From: Dictyostelium discoideum
Lineage: Eukaryota
Assembly: GCA_000004695.1 (NCBI GenBank)
Contig: CM000152.2
Coordinates: 5,472,001-5,536,000 of the forward strand
Direction: 5' to 3'
DNA: 64,000 bases
The translations under genes were made by a program, and so were the position numbers. The stretch's first letter is position 1, and each line of letters begins with the position of its first letter. Positions 28,666 to 48,575 of this stretch are shown in pieces. The notes beneath the pieces were generated by a model. The model was not told the origin of the DNA. It ran no database searches and was given only the letters and a program-made list of their open reading frames with translations.

Positions 28666-31600
28666 CTTTTTCCTAAAGTTCTTTTTTGATAAATTAAAAA
28701 AATCAAATTCGAATACATTAAATTCAACCAATTCAACATTAAATAGTAATGAATTAAGTAGTGGTGGAACAATGTCATCATTGGATATTGAATCAATGCT
28801 TAATGATTTACAAAGTGCACCAGATTCAGAATTAGATTTAGAAAAATTAAAAGAAAAACAATTAGAATTAGAAAAGAAATTAGAGAAAGAAGCATTATTA
28901 AATAAACCAACCATTTCAACTGAAACTATTATAACTGAGGGTGTTGAATTAGATGATAATTATGAATTTGATTTCGATTTTAATAATCCAATTACAACTA
29001 ATAATAATAATAATAATAATACAAAAACAACAACCACAACAACAACTACAACAATAACAAATAAAAATTTAAATAAAGTTAATAGTATGAGTTTACCAAC
29101 TAGACCACAAGCACAACAATTTATATCACCAAAACAAACGAATCAAGAAGATTGGTGGAGTAAAACTGGTGTTGATAGTGTTGTTTTGGTAAAGAAATTA
29201 GAAGAGATTATGCCAAAGAATAGTGATCTTTTAAAGATGAATATGGATGGATCGTTGGATTTCTTTTTATTGACAACTGAAGAGGATAAGCAAGGTAGAA
29301 TCATTCTATTTGGTAAAGTTAAATTACAAGCTTCTAAATCAAATAAACCAGGTGGTGGTGGTGGCGCAACTAAACAAACTTCAATCACTGATGAACCAGT
29401 TACAAAAGTACCACTTAAATATGCCTCATGTTGTATTATCATTGAAAAGATGGAGAGAAATGTATTCTTTTTACCAAGAGATTATAAATTGGATCAGGAT
29501 GGTGAATCCACTACAATTCAAGTCACCGATACAATGATTGAGGCAGAATTGAAACAATTGGTTGACAGATCAAAAATTAAAGATTACAAATTGAAAAAGG
29601 TAAAGAGAACAAGTGCATTCGATTATTCTGTACCCCACAAGAACGGTCCGGTAGGTGAACAACATTATGTTTGGAAATTAAGTTACCCATCCAATCAGAT
29701 GGTTTTCCCAAATGATATCAAAGGTTCAACTTTTAGATGCGCCTATGGCATAACATCATCACCTGTCGAGCTTTTCTTGATAAAGAGAAAGATTATGGGT
29801 CCAACTTGGTTAACAGTGTCAGGTATCACATTGAATTTCGATCAAAAGAAATCATTCGCTCGTTATGAAGCCACTGTTAAATCCTTTAAATCCATTAAAC
29901 CAAGTATGTACAAAAATGAACCATCACCACCATTGACCGTAATGAGTATCAGTACCAAATCAGTTATGAAAGGCTCCTCACATGAGGTTGTAATGATTAG
30001 TTCAGTGATTCATGAATCAATATCAGCCGATGGTCCAACAGAGAATCAAGATTCTATCAAGTATATCACTGCCATTCGTCCATTGACAGGTCAAGTTTTC
30101 CCACCAGATTTTCAAAAACCAGGTGCTTCAACTACTAAACAAAATGTTACCATTTGTACCTCTGAAAGAAATCTATTATCATTCTTTTGTGAAACCGTTT
30201 TAAATGCTGATCCAGATGTTTTCGCAGGTCATAATATCATTGGCTATGATATTGAGGTCATTTTAGATAGATTAGAGAAATTAAAAGTTATGGAATGGGC
30301 ATTCATTGGTCGTCTTAAAAGATCAAGTTTCGATAGATTCAATCATATCTCTGGTCGTTTAATTTGTGATTCCTATTTGGTTTGTAAAGAATTTTTACCA
30401 AAAGAAAAGAATTATTCATTAGTTGAATTATCAAAAAATCAATTATCAATTAATAAACCTGAAATTAATTATTTATCAATTGAACCATATTTTGAAACAA
30501 CTAAAAAGTAAATATAAAATTTATAAATTAATAATTAATATATATAGAATATAGAATATTTATTAATAATTTATTATTTTTTTTTTAGATTAAATATTTT
30601 TATTGAAATTAATGAAAATGATTGTTATATTATATTTTTATTAATTTTCAAATTATTAGTATTCCCGTTAACAAAACAATTAACAAATTTAGCAGGTAAT
30701 CAATGGGATAAATCATTAAAATCAAATAGAGCAGAAAGAATTGAATATTTATTATTACATAATTTCCATGAAAAGAAATATTTATTACCAGATAAAATTT
30801 ATCAAAAATCAAGTAGTAGTGGTGGTGGTGGTGGTGCTAAAGATAAAGATAATCATGCAGCATATAGTGGTGGTTTAGTACTTGATCCAAAAATTGATTT
30901 CTATGATCGTTATGTTGTATTATTAGATTTCAATTCATTGTATCCATCAATTATTCAAGAGTATAATGTTTGTTTTACAACTATTAATCGTGTTAAAAGA
31001 GATGATGGTAAATGGGAAGAAGCAATGCCACCACCATCTTCCATTGAAAAAGGTATACTTCCAAAGGTATTACATGGTTTGGTTTCAAAGAGAAGAGAAA
31101 TTAAAAAGAGAATGGAGCAAGAAAAGAATAAAATAATAAAAGCACAATATGATATTCAACAACAAGCCGTTAAGTTAATTGCAAATTCAATGTATGGTTG
31201 CTTAGGTTTCTCTCATAGTAGATTCTATGCATTACCATTGGCAGAGTTGGTCACTAGAAAGGGTAGAGAAAATCTTCAAAAGGGTGCTTCCATCGTTAAT
31301 AAAATGTGCTATGATGTAATCTATGGTGATACTGATTCCCTTATGATCTACACTGGTGTCGGTACTTTCAATGAAGCTGAAACCATTGGTAAAGAAATTC
31401 AAAAGAAAATCAATGACCAATATCGTGGTAGTGTAATGGAAATTGGTTTAGATGGTATTTTCAAACGTTTATTATTATTTAAAAAGAAGAAATATGCTTG
31501 TTTGAAGGAATTCCGTATCGATTCAACCACTACCAAATGTGAGAGAGAAAATAAAGGTATCGATATTGTTCGTAGAGATTATTGTGACCTCACTAAGGAT

Positions 31601-32728
31601 ATAGGTCAATGGGTTTTAAATTTGATTTTAGGTGGTGAAGAAAAGATTGCACTCTTCTCTTTAATTAAGGAATATTTAGAGAGTGTTCAACAACAAATTA
31701 AAGATAACACACTTGCTGTGGAAAAATTCATTATCACTAAGACCCTCTCAAAACAGCCAGAGGAGTATAATGATGCCGATATTCAACCACATGTTCAAGT
31801 TGCACTTCAAATGAGGGCTAAAGGTTTACATGTCCAACCAGGTGAGCAAGTACCTTACATTATCACACATGGCAATTCATCATCAGATATTAAAGAGGAA
31901 TGGCATCATAGAGCAAGAGCTCCTTCAGATGTTGAATCAATTCAAGATGTTGATATCGATTGGTACCTTTCTCAACAGATTTTACCATCCATTCAACGTA
32001 ATACCGGTCCAATCGGTATGGAACCACATGAATTGGCTCAATGGTTAGGTATGACTGGTACAAAATATCAAAAACAATTTGACCATTTACAACAACAATC
32101 TAATCAAGATTTTAAACCACGTTATACTTTATCCACTGAAGATCTTCGTTATAAACAATGTAAATCCTTTAATTTCGAATGCCCATATTGTGGTCAAAAT
32201 AATGAATTCACTGGAATTGTAAAGATTGATTCAGAGGGTAAAAGTGAATCTGGCTTCGATTGCAACCAATGTCATGCTAAAATCCCATTAAAGAAATTAG
32301 CTAATCAATTACAATTAAACATTAGAACTTATTTGAAGCAATATAATGATTGGGATTTACGATGCACCGAATGTGAAAAAGTCTCTAAAAACTATAAAGA
32401 AACCTCTTATCGTTGCGCTAGACCTCAATGTCGTGGTAAAATGATTCAAATTATGACAAGTTCAAAATTGTTTAATCAAATTAGTTTCTTTTCAAAACTA
32501 TTTAGAAATGATCTTTCAAACTCTGATAATACCACTACAATCATTCCAAATGAAGATCAAAATACTCTTAAACAAGCAAAACAAATAATTGATTCTTTTC
32601 TCTCTAAATTTGATCAATATAATGTAAATTTAAATTCACTCTTAACTCCTTCACAAACTTTAGATAGTTTTAATAATTATTTAGCTTCTTCTCGAGCTAG
32701 TATTCAATATCCAATACTTAATAAATAA
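28018..32728 (+). CDS. polA1: DNA polymerase alpha catalytic subunit (family B polymerase)
   Basis: Model is join(28018..28578, 28679..30507, 30589..32728), with introns of 100 and 81 nt (GTAAGT and GTAAAT donors). The N-terminus RPKREKKS...KRARDGEK resembles the Pol alpha N-terminus. Motifs DFNSLYPSII (motif A) and YGDTDS (motif C) are present. The C-terminal zinc module is CPYCGQ...CNQCH and CTECEK...CARPQCRGK. The product is ~1509 aa. Confidence 0.85.
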
Positions 32729-37669: not shown

Positions 37670-38768
37670 TTAAGAATTTGGTGGTGGTTGTTGTTGTTGT
37701 TGTTGTTGATTAATTGGTGAAGATCTTTTTAAATTTAAAGGATTAAAAGAATAATCAATTACAGATTCTTCAATGATTTGTTTAACTTGAAAAGAAATTG
37801 GTTGATCAGAGATTGTTGAGAATAAAGATACTGGTAAATATTTGCCATAAGAGTCATAAAATTTTAAACGATTTTGAATCTCTTGATTATAGTTATGTTT
37901 TAATTCTTCATTGAATTGTTCAGCAATTGTTTTTTGACGTAAATATTCTTTTTGTCTTCTTTTAACCTCTTCTAATAGATTATCATAGGATTCATCGAAT
38001 AGATCATACCATTTACCAAGACTATATAATTCACCAATGAAATAATTTGCACCAGCCAATCGTTGTTCGAATATACAATTAAATCTTTCAAATGTTTCCC
38101 AATTCTCTGAGAAATCATTACCAAAACTTAACTTTTCATTCAATAAATAAACTAATGTATAAATACTACAACTCTCTTTAAATTGATTTTCAATATCTTT
38201 TACATTCTTTGACATTAATTGTATATTCTCTAATGAACTTGTTAAAAGTAATTGAATTTGTTCTTTTTTATTATTAATATTAAAATCATGTTGTTGTTGT
38301 GGTGATGATGGTGATGGTGAAGAAGATGAAGAAGATGACGATGGTGATGGTGATGGTGATAATGGTGATGGAGACGGTTTATAAAAAGTTATAAAATCAC
38401 ATTGTGAAGCTACATTAATTAATTGATTTTGAATTGTTTTATATAAATTATTTTGTTGTGTTAATAAATCAGAGAGTGAATTACTTTCTTCAATTTGTTT
38501 ATTATATTGTTTTTGAATCTCTAAGAATCTATTCTCCATCTCTAAATTTGATTCATTGGTTGATTTATATATTTGTTTTGATTTATCACAAATTTCATTT
38601 AATCCTGATAATTCTGATAAAAATTGATTCTTTATTAATTCTAAACTTTCAATATCAATAAAATCATATAATGTATTTAAATTATTATTGTTATTATTAT
38701 TATTATTTTTATTTACATCATTATTATTATTATTTTCATTATTATCATCTTCAGTACTTTTATTACTA

Positions 38769-39593: not shown

Positions 39594-41272
39594 TTAACTT
39601 TGAATTGTTGTTAAAAAAAAAGTTGGAACTGTTGCACGGAATGAATAATCTCTATTATTTAATTTAACCATTGTAAAATAACCTCCCATATGACCCTGAG
39701 AACGTTCAATCTCACACCTACTACAATATTCACTAAATTTATTTATTTATTAATTAATTAGTATATTTTTTAATAATAAAAGAGAGAGAGAAAATATTAT
39801 TATTATTATTTTATTATTTATTTAATTTTATACATACAAAGTTACACCAGGTTTTATAATTGGAAATTTACCAATTACACCAGGACCATTTACATTTGAA
39901 GAACCATCAATTGTTGATATTATCCAAAAACGATGAGTTAATTGACAAGCATTTTTTGGATCTTCATCTTTATCCATTGAGATAGTTACTCTATAAAAGA
40001 AGGTATAAGAATTTTCATCCTCTGGTATATAAACTGCACTACATTTTATTTTAACACCTTGAGTTACAACCTCATCACCATTGTAAGGTGAAAACTCTGG
40101 ATATCTATAGAGTATTTTCCTTCTAGTTGTGAATACACCTTTCTCTAATGCAAAAGCATGTAAATATAAAAATTCCCAAAAACTATTTGCAACAATCATT
40201 GGACTACCCGGAGCAATTAATAAGATTTGGTCCTTTTTAAAACTCTTTTCTTCAATTTTAAAATCCCGCAATGCCATTATATAATATCTTCTAGAGGCAG
40301 AACATGCTACAAATAAAACATGTTGAAATGATTGCATATTTCTAGTCTTTTTATATAACGATATCGTCTTTTCAAGTGATAATAAAAATATATTTGTTTT
40401 TGATTCATATGCTTCAACTGTACCTAATAAACCATATCTTGTAAATTCTTTTTGTCCATTATGAATTAACATTGAACATAAATAATCAGCTGGTAATTTT
40501 ATATTATTATCATTATTAACAACATTATTTGAACTATTATTTGAACTATTATTTACAAATTTAATAGTTGAAATTAATTTATATAATTTAGTATGAGAAA
40601 TCGAATGAAAAGATTTTTTCATTGAATCCATTGAATTTAAATCCATCCAATTTTCAAATCTATCCCAAATGTATCTCATTGTTTTATAATGATGAATTAT
40701 ATTTGAATTAAATCTTTGATGTAATAATTTATTTACAATAATTGGTGTTAATTTTTCTTTTTCTATTATTTCATTTTGTTCTCTTTCTAAATCTAAATGT
40801 TCATTTTTATTTTTATTTTGACTTTTATATGATTTTCTTAATTCTTTTAAATAATTTGCTTCTTCATTAATATCATCGTCATCGTCATCATTATCTTCAT
40901 CTTCATCATCTTCATCATACTCTTCATCATACTCTTCATCATACTCTTCTTTTTCATCTTCATTTTCTTCATCTTTATTATCCTCCTCCTCCTCATTATT
41001 AGTATTAACATTATTTTCTACTTCTTCATTATTAATATTTAATTTATATTTGATAATTGCATTATCAGTTGATAATAAGAAATCTTTTTGAATAATATCA
41101 TTCCAAATCATATTTGAAATTGAAGAATTTGAAATGATTTGGTTAAAATATAAATTAACTTGAGATAATTCTAAAAGTGATTTTGTATGTAAATTTTGTA
41201 ATATAATTAATAAATTTTCAAATGGTATATTTAAAATGTAACATGGTTGTTGTTGTTGATTATCTTCATCTT

Positions 41273-41276
<4 letters not shown>
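39594..41276 (-). CDS. F-box only protein 3 (FBXO3)-like: N-terminal F-box, acidic repeat, C-terminal ApaG domain
   Basis: Model is join(41276..39838, 39732..39594). The donor is GTATGT after ...KPGVT(TT); a 105-nt intron follows; the acceptor is aaatttag. The junction ...PIIKPGVTFEYCSRCEIERSQGHMGGYF matches the FBXO3 ApaG segment PKIQPGETYEYVSC...GYMEGYY. F-box segment: CYILNIPFENLLIILQNL. A (EEYD)3 acidic repeat is present. Confidence 0.65.
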
Positions 41277-41833: not shown

Positions 41834-43875
41834 ATGAACAGTGAAAATATAATTAAAGTTATTAAAGGAAAAAAAGTTGTAATAAATGGTGAAATAAAAC
41901 CAGCATCAATTTTAATTAAGTAAGTTTTTAATTAATAAAATAATAAATAATAAATAATAAATAATAAATAATTTTAAAATTAAAAATTAATTTATATTTT
42001 TTTTTATAAAGAAATGGTATTATTATTGATATTAAAGATTATTCAAGTGAAATTAAAGAAGAACATGAGGTTTTAATTGAAGAAGAGAAATTAGTTATTA
42101 TGGGTGGATTAGTTGATAGTCATGTTCATATTAATGAACCAGGTAGAACAGAATGGGAAGGATTTTTAAGTGCAACAAGTGCAGCAGCATCAGGTGGTGT
42201 AACAACCATTATTGATATGCCATTGAATAGTTCACCAGTTACAACAACATTTGAAAATTTACAAACTAAAATTGAATCGATGCCAGGTAAATTAAGAGTT
42301 GATGTTGGTTTATTGGGTGGTATTATACCGGGTAATTCATCAGAGATCTCTAGAATGGTATTAGAAGGTGGTGTAGTTGGTTTTAAATCATTTTTAGTTC
42401 ATTCTGGTATTGATGAATTCCCACATGTGAAAGAGGATGATATTCAAGAAGCAATGAATGTAATGAAAAAATTAAAAGATGAGCAAGGTGGAAGGGATGT
42501 AGTTATGATGTTTCATGCAGAGATTGAGGAACCAATTAAAGAGGCCACTGAGAGATTACAACGTGAGAATGCAGATCCAAAATTATACGACACCTTCCTC
42601 AAAAGTAGACCAAGAGTTAGTGAGAATATAGCAATTGATAAGGTTATTGAGTTAACTAAAAAGAATATGATAAAAACTCATATCGTTCATTTATCATCCA
42701 GTGATGCAATTGAAGCCATTCACGAGGCGGTTCATAATGATGGTGTGCCAATTACTGCAGAGACAACCTACCATTATCTATACTTTGAATCTGAGCAAGT
42801 CCCATACGGTAACACACTCTATAAATGCTGTCCACCAGTACGTGAAAGTGAAAATAAAGATTTACTTTGGAAAGCTGTGACCAATGGTACCATAAACATC
42901 ATCGTTAGCGACCACTCACCATGTACATTAGATTTGAAATTAATTGAACAAGGTGATTTCATGAAAGCATGGGGTGGCATTAGTTCGCTACAATTAGGCT
43001 TACCAATCATTTGGACAGAGGCTAGCAAAAGGGGTGTGCCATTAGCCAAACTCTCAGAATACATGTCTGACGCACCATCACGTCTAGTTGGCTTAAACGA
43101 TCGTAAAGGGTCAATTAAAATTGGCAGAGATGCAGATTTCGTTATATGGGATCCTGAAGAATCGTTTACAGTCGACCAAGGTCTATTAATGGTAAAAAAT
43201 AAAAATTCACCATACCACGGTGAAAAACTTTTAGGTGTAGTTCACCACACGATTTTACGTGGTAATAAAATATTTTCAAAAGGTGATCAAACAATTTCAA
43301 AAATTATTGGTAAACGTTTAATTCAAACTAAAATTCACACAAATCCAATTTACCCATCACCAACATTACCAACCATAGAGTTATTAAATAGTTTAACTGA
43401 GCAAAAAACATTCTTTGATTGTATTCATTTACTATTTGAAGCTGCACCACCTTTAGCAAATGCATTATTTTCAAAACGTCCATTCTCATCATATCAACAA
43501 TTAATCGATCAAGCTTATTCAATCATTCAATCATTAAATGAATCTGATAAAATTCAAGTTATCAATGCTCATCCAAGAATTGGTGTATCTGCATCACAAG
43601 TTAAAAATTCATCATCAATTAGTTACCGTGAACAATCTTGTGATAAAGATTCCTCGATTGATCAATCAATTCTTGAAAATTTAACACAATTAAATCAACA
43701 ATATGAATCAAAATTTGGTTTTAAATTTGTTGTATTTGTAAATGGTCGTCCAAAGAATGAAATCATTCCAATTTTACAAAATCGTTTAAATAATAATGAT
43801 AAACAAAAAGAATTAAATTTAGGTTTATCTGAAATGATTGAAATTTCAAAATCAAGATTATTAAAATTATTATAA
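41834..43875 (+). CDS. Allantoinase (cyclic amidohydrolase) fused to a C-terminal OHCU decarboxylase (UraD-like) domain
   Basis: Model is join(41834..41919, 42015..43875) with a GTAAGT donor and ...tataaag acceptor. The allantoinase/dihydropyrimidinase-like core includes [21 protein letters not shown]. From about residue 480 an OHCU-decarboxylase-like region runs ...[11 protein letters not shown]...[25 protein letters not shown]. The product is ~648 aa. Confidence 0.65.
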
Positions 43876-43940: not shown

Positions 43941-45522
43941 TTATTTAATTTTATTTTTTCTATTTTTAATTTTATTTTCAATAATTTCTTCATTATTGTT
44001 ATTATTATTATTATTATAATTATTATTATTATAATTAATATTATTATTATTATTATTATCATCATTATTAATTAAAAAGTTTTTAAAATTATTTTGTCTT
44101 TTTTGAGAAATTTTTAAAAATAAAATGAAAATAATTGTAATGAATATTAAGAATAATAAAATTAAGATTAATTCAAAATGTTCTAATAAGAAAGCTGATA
44201 AAGATTTACCAGAACAATTTGGATTCATTAAGATTTCATTTACCATTGTTTCATTTGTACCTTTGAAATTACAAGTTGAACCACCTTGATCTAAATCGAC
44301 TAAACAATCGAAGCCATGATAAATTTGTCTTTTGAAATTGAATTTTCTAAATGAACTACTTGCCAATTCAAATTCATTCTTTGCAGTGATAATATTATTT
44401 TCAAATTTATTATTTGAATCTTGGAAATCAACATTTGAATAACTACAATAAATTGAAGACCCAAATAATGTTGCAACATTATTAACTATTCTATTCGATT
44501 GTAACTCCAATGAACATCTATCATTACAATTACTAACATAAATTGAACCACCATTATATGCATAATTCTCATAAAATATTGAATCAATAATTGTAATACG
44601 TTGTTTAATATTATTTAAAAACAATGCACCACCTAAACCTCTACCATAATTTTTATAAAAACTACTTGAATCAATTAAAATTTTACCTGAATTTATAATT
44701 GAAATTGCACCACCACCATTATTATTATTATAATTAATATTTTGATGATGATTGTTATTATTTTGATTATTATTTTGATTATTAATTGTTGTTGTTATAC
44801 CATATTTTTCATTACTATCAAATAATGAATTAAAAATTTCAACAATTTGAAAACCTGAAACTAATAATGAACCACTGCCAATATTATCTTTAAATAATGT
44901 TTGTTTAATTAAAAGTTTATTAAATATACCATTTGCATTCATTGGTATATCACCATTATTTGATTTACTCTCTAAATTCAATGATATCCATGGTGAATTA
45001 TTACTACCTCTTATATTTTTAATAATTGAATTTTCAATTTCAATATGAGTTGATGATTGTTTTGATTCAATTTTAATTGATGATTCATCCAATGGTATTG
45101 AGTTTTGATGAGTACCAATGAATCTTGAATTCTTTATTATAATTTGTACCCTTTGATTTGATATTTCTTTAACATTTAAAAATTGATTAAAATCATTTTC
45201 AAAATTACAATTTATAATATTTAAATTTAATCCACCAATACTACCACCACCACCACCACTATTACCACTATTACCACTGCCACTATTATCAAAATTTAAA
45301 ATATAATTCATTGAATTACTATCTTTAAATGAAATTCCTTTAAATGTAATTTCATTTTTTGATTTATTTGATAAATAAAACATTGGTTTTTCTGATCCAT
45401 CATTTTTAAAAATAACTTGTTCATTTGGATTTTGTTGTTTTGCTAATTGTTCAACTTCTTCTTCTAATATTTCATATTCAATATAACTTTCATCAAATGG
45501 ATTAATATTATCTTTATCATTT

Positions 45523-45557
<35 letters not shown>

Positions 45558-45965
45558 TTCGTCATTATCATCATCATTATCATCATCAATATCAATTTCT
45601 TCATTATCTTCTTCATTTGGATCAATTAATTTTAAAATTGGTAATTCTTGAAATAATGTATTTTCAAATGAAATATTTAAATCACTTAAATCTTGTTGAA
45701 TATTTTTATATTCACCTGGTGTAATATGAACTTTTATCTTTGAATAACTATTAATTGATTTATATTTATCTTTGATTTGATTGATTGCATAATCAATGCT
45801 TTTACATTGATGTTCATTTCCTAATAAACCACAACCATTTTCATCTTTTCCTTTACTATTTGAAATATATAAATCAATTTGATTATTACTTTGACAATAA
45901 TTAAATGATATAGTAATAAATAAAATTAAAAAAATAAGTGAAAATGAAATAATATTCACTTTCAT
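43941..45965 (-). CDS. Type I membrane protein with signal peptide, acidic poly-N region and parallel beta-helix (PbH1-like) repeats
   Basis: Single 674-aa exon. It carries repeats GGAISIINSGKILIDSSSFYKNYGRGLGGALFLNN... and a TM segment ILILLFLIFITIIFILFL near the C-terminus. Confidence 0.6.
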
Positions 45966-47408: not shown

Positions 47409-48119
<711 letters not shown>

Positions 48120-48575
48120 TAATAATATTAATTTTTTTTTTTTTTTTTTTTTGTGAGATGGAGTTGAAATTAAAGAATTAAAAAAAAAAAAAATTAAAAA
48201 AAATAAAAAAAAAAAAAACAATTATTGGAAAGGTATTTCAATTTTATTTTGCTATTATTTTGAGACGGTAAAAAGGGATTTTTAAGAAATTTTTTTTTTG
48301 AATATTTAATTACAGTTGATAACTTTGTGGATCCTAATATAATAGATCCTGATTCTTTGGTGACATTCCATTCATTAATGTCGATTTGAGGGTTAATTTC
48401 ATTTAATAATTTTGATTTTATGTCAACAATCATTGCTAATGATAAAGTGTTTGAATCAATTTGTTTTGATTTTGTAGAAGAAGGAGAAGAAGAAGAAAAT
48501 TGACTTTAAATTAATAAATTATTATTATTAATTAATAAATTTGAGAAATCTTTTGATTTACTAATTAAATCTATT

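Follow-up and report, generated by a model that had tools for sequence, protein, structure and literature searches.

OHCU decarboxylase (Urad), which acts on OHCU (2-oxo-4-hydroxy-4-carboxy-5-ureidoimidazoline), is joined to uricase in PucL of Bacillus. A fusion of Urad with 5-hydroxyisourate (HIU) hydrolase, the allantoin synthase or TTL, is known from plants (PMC3646786). In urate degradation, urate oxidase yields 5-hydroxyisourate, HIU hydrolase converts this to OHCU, Urad forms (S)-allantoin and allantoinase produces allantoate (PMC8919083). Here, a stretch of 64,000 nucleotides of Dictyostelium discoideum (contig CM000152.2, positions 5,472,001 to 5,536,000; referred to below as the window) was analyzed, in which the gene allB1 joins Urad to a different partner. 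As judged from its sequence, allB1 very probably encodes one 649-amino-acid (aa) bifunctional enzyme of urate catabolism with predicted allantoinase and Urad activities. A previous sequence-only reading of the window had proposed a fusion of adjacent steps of urate degradation in which Urad makes the substrate of allantoinase, and this proposal is supported by the presence of both domains, each complete, in a single open reading frame (ORF).

Structure and identity of the allB1 gene

The composition of the window is Dictyostelium-like, with 10-15% G+C in intergenic and 25-40% G+C in coding DNA. allB1 is a two-exon gene on the + strand with a spliced coding sequence of 1950 nt, which is translated into 649 aa. 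By exact-sequence look-up this product was identified as D. discoideum AX4 DDB_G0282199 (XP_640282.1, UniProt Q54SV3, ALN1_DICDI), which has the Swiss-Prot name "Probable allantoinase 1". The gene model hence agrees with the accepted one, and allB1 itself is not new. The following features were assigned, with positions given in the window:

41834..41919, + strand: exon 1, 86 nt, with the ATG at 41834 and the first 28 2/3 codons; GTAAGT follows from 41920
41920..42011, no strand assigned: intron, 92 nt, GTAAGT...AAAG, 96.7% A+T, with a (AATAATAAAT)n repeat inside
42012..43875, + strand: exon 2, 1864 nt including the TAA stop, a continuous ORF that carries the remaining part of the allantoinase, the linker and all of Urad
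41858..43317, + strand: allantoinase (cyclic amidohydrolase) domain, residues 9-464, with the intron inside; from TIGR03178, phmmer and Foldseek
43318..43398, + strand: linker, residues 465-491; from the alignment and the AlphaFold2 (AF2) pLDDT
43399..43860, + strand: OHCU decarboxylase (Urad) domain, residues 492-645; from PF09349 and phmmer

Residues 1-29 of the protein were placed on exon 1 by tblastn, and excision of the 92-nt intron restored the frame and yielded exactly the database protein. This single intron consists mostly of the tandem AATAATAAAT repeat, and the six public short-read contigs with the gene all break off within it, at one and the same position.

The junction between the two domains (residues 465-491) lies mid-way in the uninterrupted 1864-nt exon 2, which contains no internal stop codon. 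A scan for intron-like segments found no GTA...AG segment of at least 85% A+T in this exon, and the G+C content was 23-35% across the junction versus 0-5% within the true intron. It had been claimed from the letters of the DNA that neither a stop nor a splice signal separates the two parts, which was borne out; the single uninterrupted exon proposed at 42015..43875 likewise stood, except that it starts at 42012. The linker is conserved in eukaryotic fusions (alignment consensus RLVPTxIHTxxxYPxPxLPxI), and the AF2 pLDDT is at least 90 over its conserved blocks.

Domain assignment

The N-terminal part was assigned to the allantoinase family by profile matches and comparison with solved structures. 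Pfam Amidohydro_1 matched residues 58-447 with 86 bits, and the NCBIfam equivalog model for allantoinase AllB (TIGR03178) matched residues 9-464 with 489.2 bits, above its trusted cutoff of 357.85. None of the sister-family models reached its own cutoff (ErtD 278, dihydroorotase 247 and hydantoinase 206 bits). In phmmer searches this part matched the allantoinases 3hm7 (E 1e-76) and 3e74 (E 1e-73) of the Protein Data Bank, and only allantoinase-type structures (8hfd, 3hm7 and 3e74) were matched by Foldseek, with TM scores of 0.92-0.96 normalised to target length; no solved structure that spans both domains was found in the same search. Residues H66, H68, K154, H197, H255 and D329 align to the metal-ligand positions of 3e74 and 3hm7 and thus would form a binuclear site. 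We take their roles (HxH, carboxylated Lys, His, His and Asp) to be those known from the E. coli allantoinase structure. N101 and S331 are the predicted substrate-contact residues, and these as well as the metal-ligand residues are invariant in 17 aligned sequences. By its sequence, the N-terminal part is a bona fide allantoinase-family domain, in agreement with the earlier assignment of the first ~470 aa to a cyclic amidohydrolase/allantoinase.

The C-terminal part gave a full-length match to Pfam PF09349 (OHCU_decarbox), which covers residues 492-645 and profile positions 4-154 of 155 (132.9 bits, E 1.8e-38, cutoff 24). The sequence-only reading had predicted an OHCU decarboxylase in the last ~170 aa and had named Amidohydro_1 and OHCU_decarbox as the Pfam families to be expected; both were found, the latter with high significance. 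The two motifs on which this prediction was based are present as well, AHPRIG at residue 548 and a second motif of 12 residues at residue 597. The solved Urads 5uou, 3o7h, 2o70 and 2q37 were matched by phmmer, together with 5z5m, the diatom allantoin synthase, a Urad-HIU hydrolase fusion. H549 (43570-43572), E569 (43630-43632) and R644 (43855-43857) correspond in the alignment to zebrafish 2o70 positions 67, 87 and 161, and these candidate catalytic residues are kept in 14 of 14 fused orthologues; the catalytic role of this His/Glu/Arg set is assumed here from structural work on zebrafish Urad. The protein had also been set apart from the known HIU hydrolase-OHCU decarboxylase fusion. Indeed, no match to PF00576 (transthyretin-like HIU hydrolase) was obtained in the Pfam scan at E values up to 1, so that the protein is not a TTL-type member and has only the Urad module in common with that fusion. 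The NCBIfam models NF010371 (allantoicase-Urad) and NF010373 (Urad-amidohydrolase) were matched via their Urad portions.

Within the window, no second copy of Urad or allantoinase was found by tblastn. Two word-indexed, non-exhaustive searches of limited sensitivity turned up no standalone Urad of D. discoideum, which does not establish its absence.

Distribution of the fusion in amoebae

A full-length search recovered orthologues of 645-665 aa with both domains from D. citrinum, D. dimigraforme, D. firmibasis, D. purpureum, Tieghemostelium lacteum, Cavenderia fasciculata, Acytostelium subglobosum and Heterostelium album, and the fusion was present in every dictyostelid genome sampled. Other Amoebozoa had been named at the outset as the place to look for the same architecture, which was thus found in other dictyostelids. 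The fusion also occurs in soil metagenome contigs and in four entries of EukProt, among them two TRINITY transcript ORFs that are marked as complete. In Balamuthia, allantoinase and Urad are separate proteins. Dictyostelia and some of their relatives probably inherited the fusion from their common ancestor.

A Urad-only 'hypothetical protein' of 139 aa from Polysphondylium violaceum (P0097) starts mid-domain (MRPFRAYGD...) and clusters with the fused sequences; from its sequence, it probably represents the orthologous fusion with a gene model that is truncated. In T. lacteum (LODT01000001.1, L007:10001-12982), a standalone Urad of 174 aa (P0120), which ends in a PTS1-like -HKL (PTS1, type 1 peroxisomal targeting signal) and is misnamed 'allantoinase', adjoins the fused allantoinase-Urad gene 327 bp upstream on the same strand, so that two Urads, one free and one fused, stand in tandem.

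A second allantoinase without Urad, ALN2 (506-515 aa), is encoded outside the window and was found in D. discoideum (P0142), D. firmibasis (P0138) and D. citrinum (P0143 and P0144). Its N-terminal extension is hydrophobic and resembles a signal peptide, and the tail of ALN2, IIGKRLIKSNLINKK, can be aligned with the beginning of the ALN1 linker. In neighbor-joining (NJ) bootstraps, ALN2 and the dictyostelid fusions together were monophyletic in 199 of 200 replicates, versus 22 of 200 for the fusions alone. Because of these values, ALN2 appears to have arisen by duplication of the fusion gene, with loss of Urad and gain of secretory targeting. In addition, a standalone allantoinase of 463 aa from the bdelloid rotifer Didymodactylos carnosus (P0145) is 57-59% identical to the Dictyostelium domain and nests among amoebozoan-type sequences in the NJ tree, beside the transcriptome fusions P0140 and P0141. 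This placement could reflect a horizontal transfer into the rotifer or an assembly contaminant.

Bacterial fusions and their independent origin

A HMMER search, which was exhaustive over 1.84 billion cluster representatives, revealed about ten additional clusters (at 50% identity) in which the domains stand in the same order, with 35-41% identity to the query; those that carry names are bacterial. The named ones are proteins of Agromyces sp. (WP_386937914.1, 641 aa, "allantoinase AllB") and of a Thermoanaerobaculia metagenome-assembled genome (MEO7794381.1, 652 aa). Another bacterial fusion is that of Pseudarthrobacter (locus L009, 610 aa). In Actinobacteria, uraD directly follows allB. The two form a single uninterrupted ORF in Agromyces NPDC058126 and in three Pseudarthrobacter/Arthrobacter genomes, and are parted by a stop codon in close relatives. 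Fused or adjacent, they lie beside HIU hydrolase in actinobacterial operons.

Several observations concern these actinobacterial loci themselves. allB and uraD are adjacent throughout Microbacteriaceae and Micrococcaceae, as one uninterrupted ORF in some genomes (L008-L011) versus two ORFs in close relatives (L015, L021, L031, L033 and L079). In one 90%-identity cluster, the 168-aa standalone Urad of one Agromyces strain groups with the C-terminus of the 641-aa fusion of another strain. Fusion and fission appear to be frequent in these Actinobacteria, and some cases could be sequencing frameshifts. In Pseudarthrobacter sp. DSP2-3-2b1 (L009:2240-8162), the operon comprises malate synthase, DUF6986 and a two-cupin protein, in this order upstream of AllB-Urad (610 aa), and an HIU hydrolase that overlaps the AllB-Urad stop codon. 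DUF6986 (436 aa, 603 bits) is an uncharacterised family within this purine-catabolism cluster.

Sequence identities of the two Dictyostelium domains were compared between unfused homologues and bacterial fusions:

Urad domain: 45-54% to unfused Urads, namely standalone fungal (chytrid and mucoromycete) and metagenomic ones; 28-33% to bacterial fusions
Allantoinase domain: 49-52% to unfused acidobacterial AllB; 36-44% to bacterial fusions

In NJ trees of both domains, the bacterial fusions fell into clades apart from the amoebal ones, and monophyly of all fusions was recovered in 0 of 100 bootstraps. From the lower identity to bacterial fusions and the separate clades it follows that the architecture arose at least twice, with the amoebal fusion independent of the bacterial one. 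Horizontal transfer of a ready-made bacterial fusion was considered and rejected, as the bacterial fusions stand further from the Dictyostelium protein in both domains than unfused homologues do, and in no case cluster with the amoebal ones.

Localisation

The N-terminus extends only ~8 residues ahead of the start of the bacterial allantoinase profile and therefore leaves no room for a signal or transit peptide. Peroxisomal targeting was rejected, since the protein ends in -KLL, which is not a canonical PTS1, and has no N-terminal extension compared to bacterial AllB. The C-termini of the orthologues are not conserved (-LLK, -KLK, -IQQ, -LLP, -LNL and -KKL). Because neither an N-terminal extension nor a conserved PTS1 is present, the fusion protein is probably cytosolic. 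Zebrafish allantoinase is cytosolic, and zebrafish Urad has only a weak PTS1 (PMC8919083).

Proposed function and alternative explanations

The C-terminal Urad (EC 4.1.1.97) is predicted to convert 2-oxo-4-hydroxy-4-carboxy-5-ureidoimidazoline stereoselectively to (S)-allantoin and CO2, and the N-terminal binuclear-metal allantoinase (EC 3.5.2.5) would form allantoate by opening the hydantoin ring of this (S)-allantoin. The fused protein would hence combine steps 3 and 4 of the pathway, with the upstream enzyme at the C-terminus. Since the C-terminal domain would make (S)-allantoin and the N-terminal domain would open it, the product of one domain would be the stereospecific substrate of the other. 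A stereospecific allantoinase would in this way be supplied with the S enantiomer, as opposed to the racemate formed by spontaneous decay of OHCU, and the fusion would further fix a 1:1 stoichiometry and keep both activities in one place. AF2 modelling with an alignment of 126 sequences gave a mean pLDDT of 95.6 and a pTM of 0.92 without a low-confidence linker, which suggests that the predicted inter-domain arrangement is fixed rather than resembling beads on a string. Such rigid packing would favour proximity or channelling.

Several points weigh against a bifunctional enzyme of this kind. The Urad domain misses the trusted cutoffs of the NCBIfam Urad equivalog models (TIGR03164, 87.5 vs 96.25; TIGR03180, 92.2 vs 139.4; NF010372, 97 vs 124 bits); this shortfall is modest, and it is expected for a eukaryote because the models were built on bacterial sequences. 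Some orthologues vary near the conserved motifs, with NSHSRIG in Acytostelium and YNFNFVVHV in P0135. Beside the fusion, Tieghemostelium retains a Urad gene of its own, so that decarboxylation does not have to depend solely or mainly on the fused domain. A cytosolic Urad would be spatially apart from the source of its substrate, should uricase and HIU hydrolase be peroxisomal. Channelling is not a property that can be judged from pTM alone. The intron is kept in 6 of 6 public Logan contigs that carry the gene (look-up of a 591-aa ORF), which are therefore genomic and uninformative as transcript proof, and a full-text literature search found no enzyme assay, transcript or localisation data for the Q54SV3 protein.

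Among the alternatives, it is conceivable enough to be taken seriously, if only tentatively, that both domains are active and the fusion brings no kinetic coupling, being a neutral, frozen merger of co-regulated genes that ensures co-expression only. Allantoin is a stable, diffusible intermediate, and channelling is thus not chemically required. Moreover, the alternation of fused and unfused states among close actinobacterial relatives suggests that such a merger is easy and of little consequence. Against a neutral merger stand the retention of the fusion throughout Dictyostelia, the conservation of the linker and the inter-domain arrangement predicted with high confidence by the pTM of 0.92, although none of the three demonstrates channelling.

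The opposite extreme would be a channelling machine, in which the last step of allantoin synthesis was moved out of the peroxisome and welded rigidly to allantoinase, (S)-allantoin passes from Urad to the metal site and bypasses the bulk solution, and the linker, conserved and structured, forms part of a tunnel or interface. We regard this as unlikely. If true, the protein would offer a natural template from which urate-lowering multi-enzymes could be engineered.

A loss of decarboxylase activity, with the C-terminal Urad domain acting in an otherwise ordinary allantoinase as a module for structure, for oligomerisation or for regulation through allantoin binding, appears quite improbable. It would fit the scores below the equivalog cutoffs, the standalone Urad with its PTS1-like -HKL end beside the Tieghemostelium fusion, the tight packing of the domain on allantoinase predicted by AF2 and the fact that the ALN2 paralogue dispenses with the domain. 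However, the His/Glu/Arg residues, AHPRIG and the second motif are conserved in all fused orthologues, the identity to standalone fungal Urads indicates that divergence was not accelerated, and the two limited searches turned up no standalone Urad in D. discoideum.

Finally, an artefact of the gene model or assembly, with separate allantoinase and Urad genes and an unnoticed intron, stop or transcript boundary between them, is hardly credible: although the available Logan contigs with the gene are genomic, allB and uraD are adjacent but separate genes in some bacteria and P. violaceum has a 139-aa Urad-only model, the ORF is unbroken for 1864 nt in a genome whose non-coding DNA has 0-12% G+C, the junction has the 23-35% G+C given above and no A+T-rich GTA..AG segment, the identical architecture recurs in at least nine independently annotated dictyostelid genomes and in the two complete transcript ORFs from TRINITY, conservation extends to the sequence of the linker, and the P. 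violaceum model begins mid-domain and so looks truncated.

Genomic neighbourhood in the window

A purine-catabolism gene cluster around allB1 was considered and rejected, as the neighbours in the window are unrelated. The following neighbours were recorded:

28772-32728, + strand: pieces of the DNA polymerase alpha catalytic subunit, with exonuclease, polymerase and zinc-finger domains spread over two ORFs and therefore introns in between
37670-38539, - strand: ATG17-like fragment
39828-41276, - strand: protein with F-box, SMI1/KNR4 and ApaG domains, an FBXO3-like architecture
43941-45965, - strand: convergent neighbour ORF of 674 aa without a Pfam match
47409-48221, - strand: Rab/Ras-family GTPase

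In the product of the 674-aa ORF, a hydrophobic segment lies at the N-terminal end, Asn, Asp and Gly form long runs, and a C-terminal stretch that is again hydrophobic precedes a tail rich in Asn. From these sequence properties it looks like a Dictyostelium-specific membrane or secreted protein.

Significance and comparison with known systems

Both Pfam domains are precomputed in public collections for the protein and its orthologues, which are named only "allantoinase". A full-text literature search found no paper that describes or assays an allantoinase-Urad fusion (Ramazzina 2006 and 2008, which lay outside its reach, could mention the fusion). The finding is thus already known at database level and experimentally uncharacterised; the fusion is genuine and evolutionarily robust, yet ordinary for this pathway and already public. 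It provides a clean "Rosetta-stone" link between OHCU decarboxylase and allantoinase that recurs in amoebae and bacteria, and a repeated origin is good evidence that the two activities are functionally linked. The names "Probable allantoinase 1" and "allantoinase AllB" under-describe the predicted two-activity protein, and metabolic reconstructions based on such names would erroneously treat Urad as absent from Dictyostelia and from some Actinobacteria. As a model, the protein could help to learn whether natural urate-pathway fusions channel their intermediates; it opens no new kind of biology.

With bacterial or standalone AllB (TIGR03178; 3E74, 8HFD and 3HM7), the Dictyostelium protein shares the fold and the predicted HxH/carboxylated Lys/His/His/Asp metal site, and its domain reaches 49-52% sequence identity to acidobacterial AllB. 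It differs by 185 extra C-terminal residues, which comprise the linker and Urad, whereas the solved allantoinases and most homologues have 445-475 aa. The standalone Urads (zebrafish 2O70, Klebsiella 3O7H and the Arabidopsis domain 2Q37) have the full-length domain and the conserved His/Glu/Arg in common with the Dictyostelium domain. Several standalone eukaryotic Urads (P0001, P0004 and P0120) carry a C-terminal extension of the PTS1 type (-SKL or -HKL), which the fused domain, with its -KLL end, lacks.

The bacterial AllB-UraD fusions consist of the same two domains in the same order and are likewise named only 'allantoinase AllB'. Their linkers, however, are longer and unrelated to the Dictyostelium linker, and they come from adjacent operon genes. 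With the other Urad fusions of the ureide pathway, the Dictyostelium protein shares the principle that the partner of Urad is an enzyme from an adjacent or nearby step in the degradation of urate. In Dictyostelium, by contrast, the partner is allantoinase, the next step downstream, Urad is located C-terminally, and no Transthyretin/HIUase, uricase or allantoicase domain was detected by Pfam.

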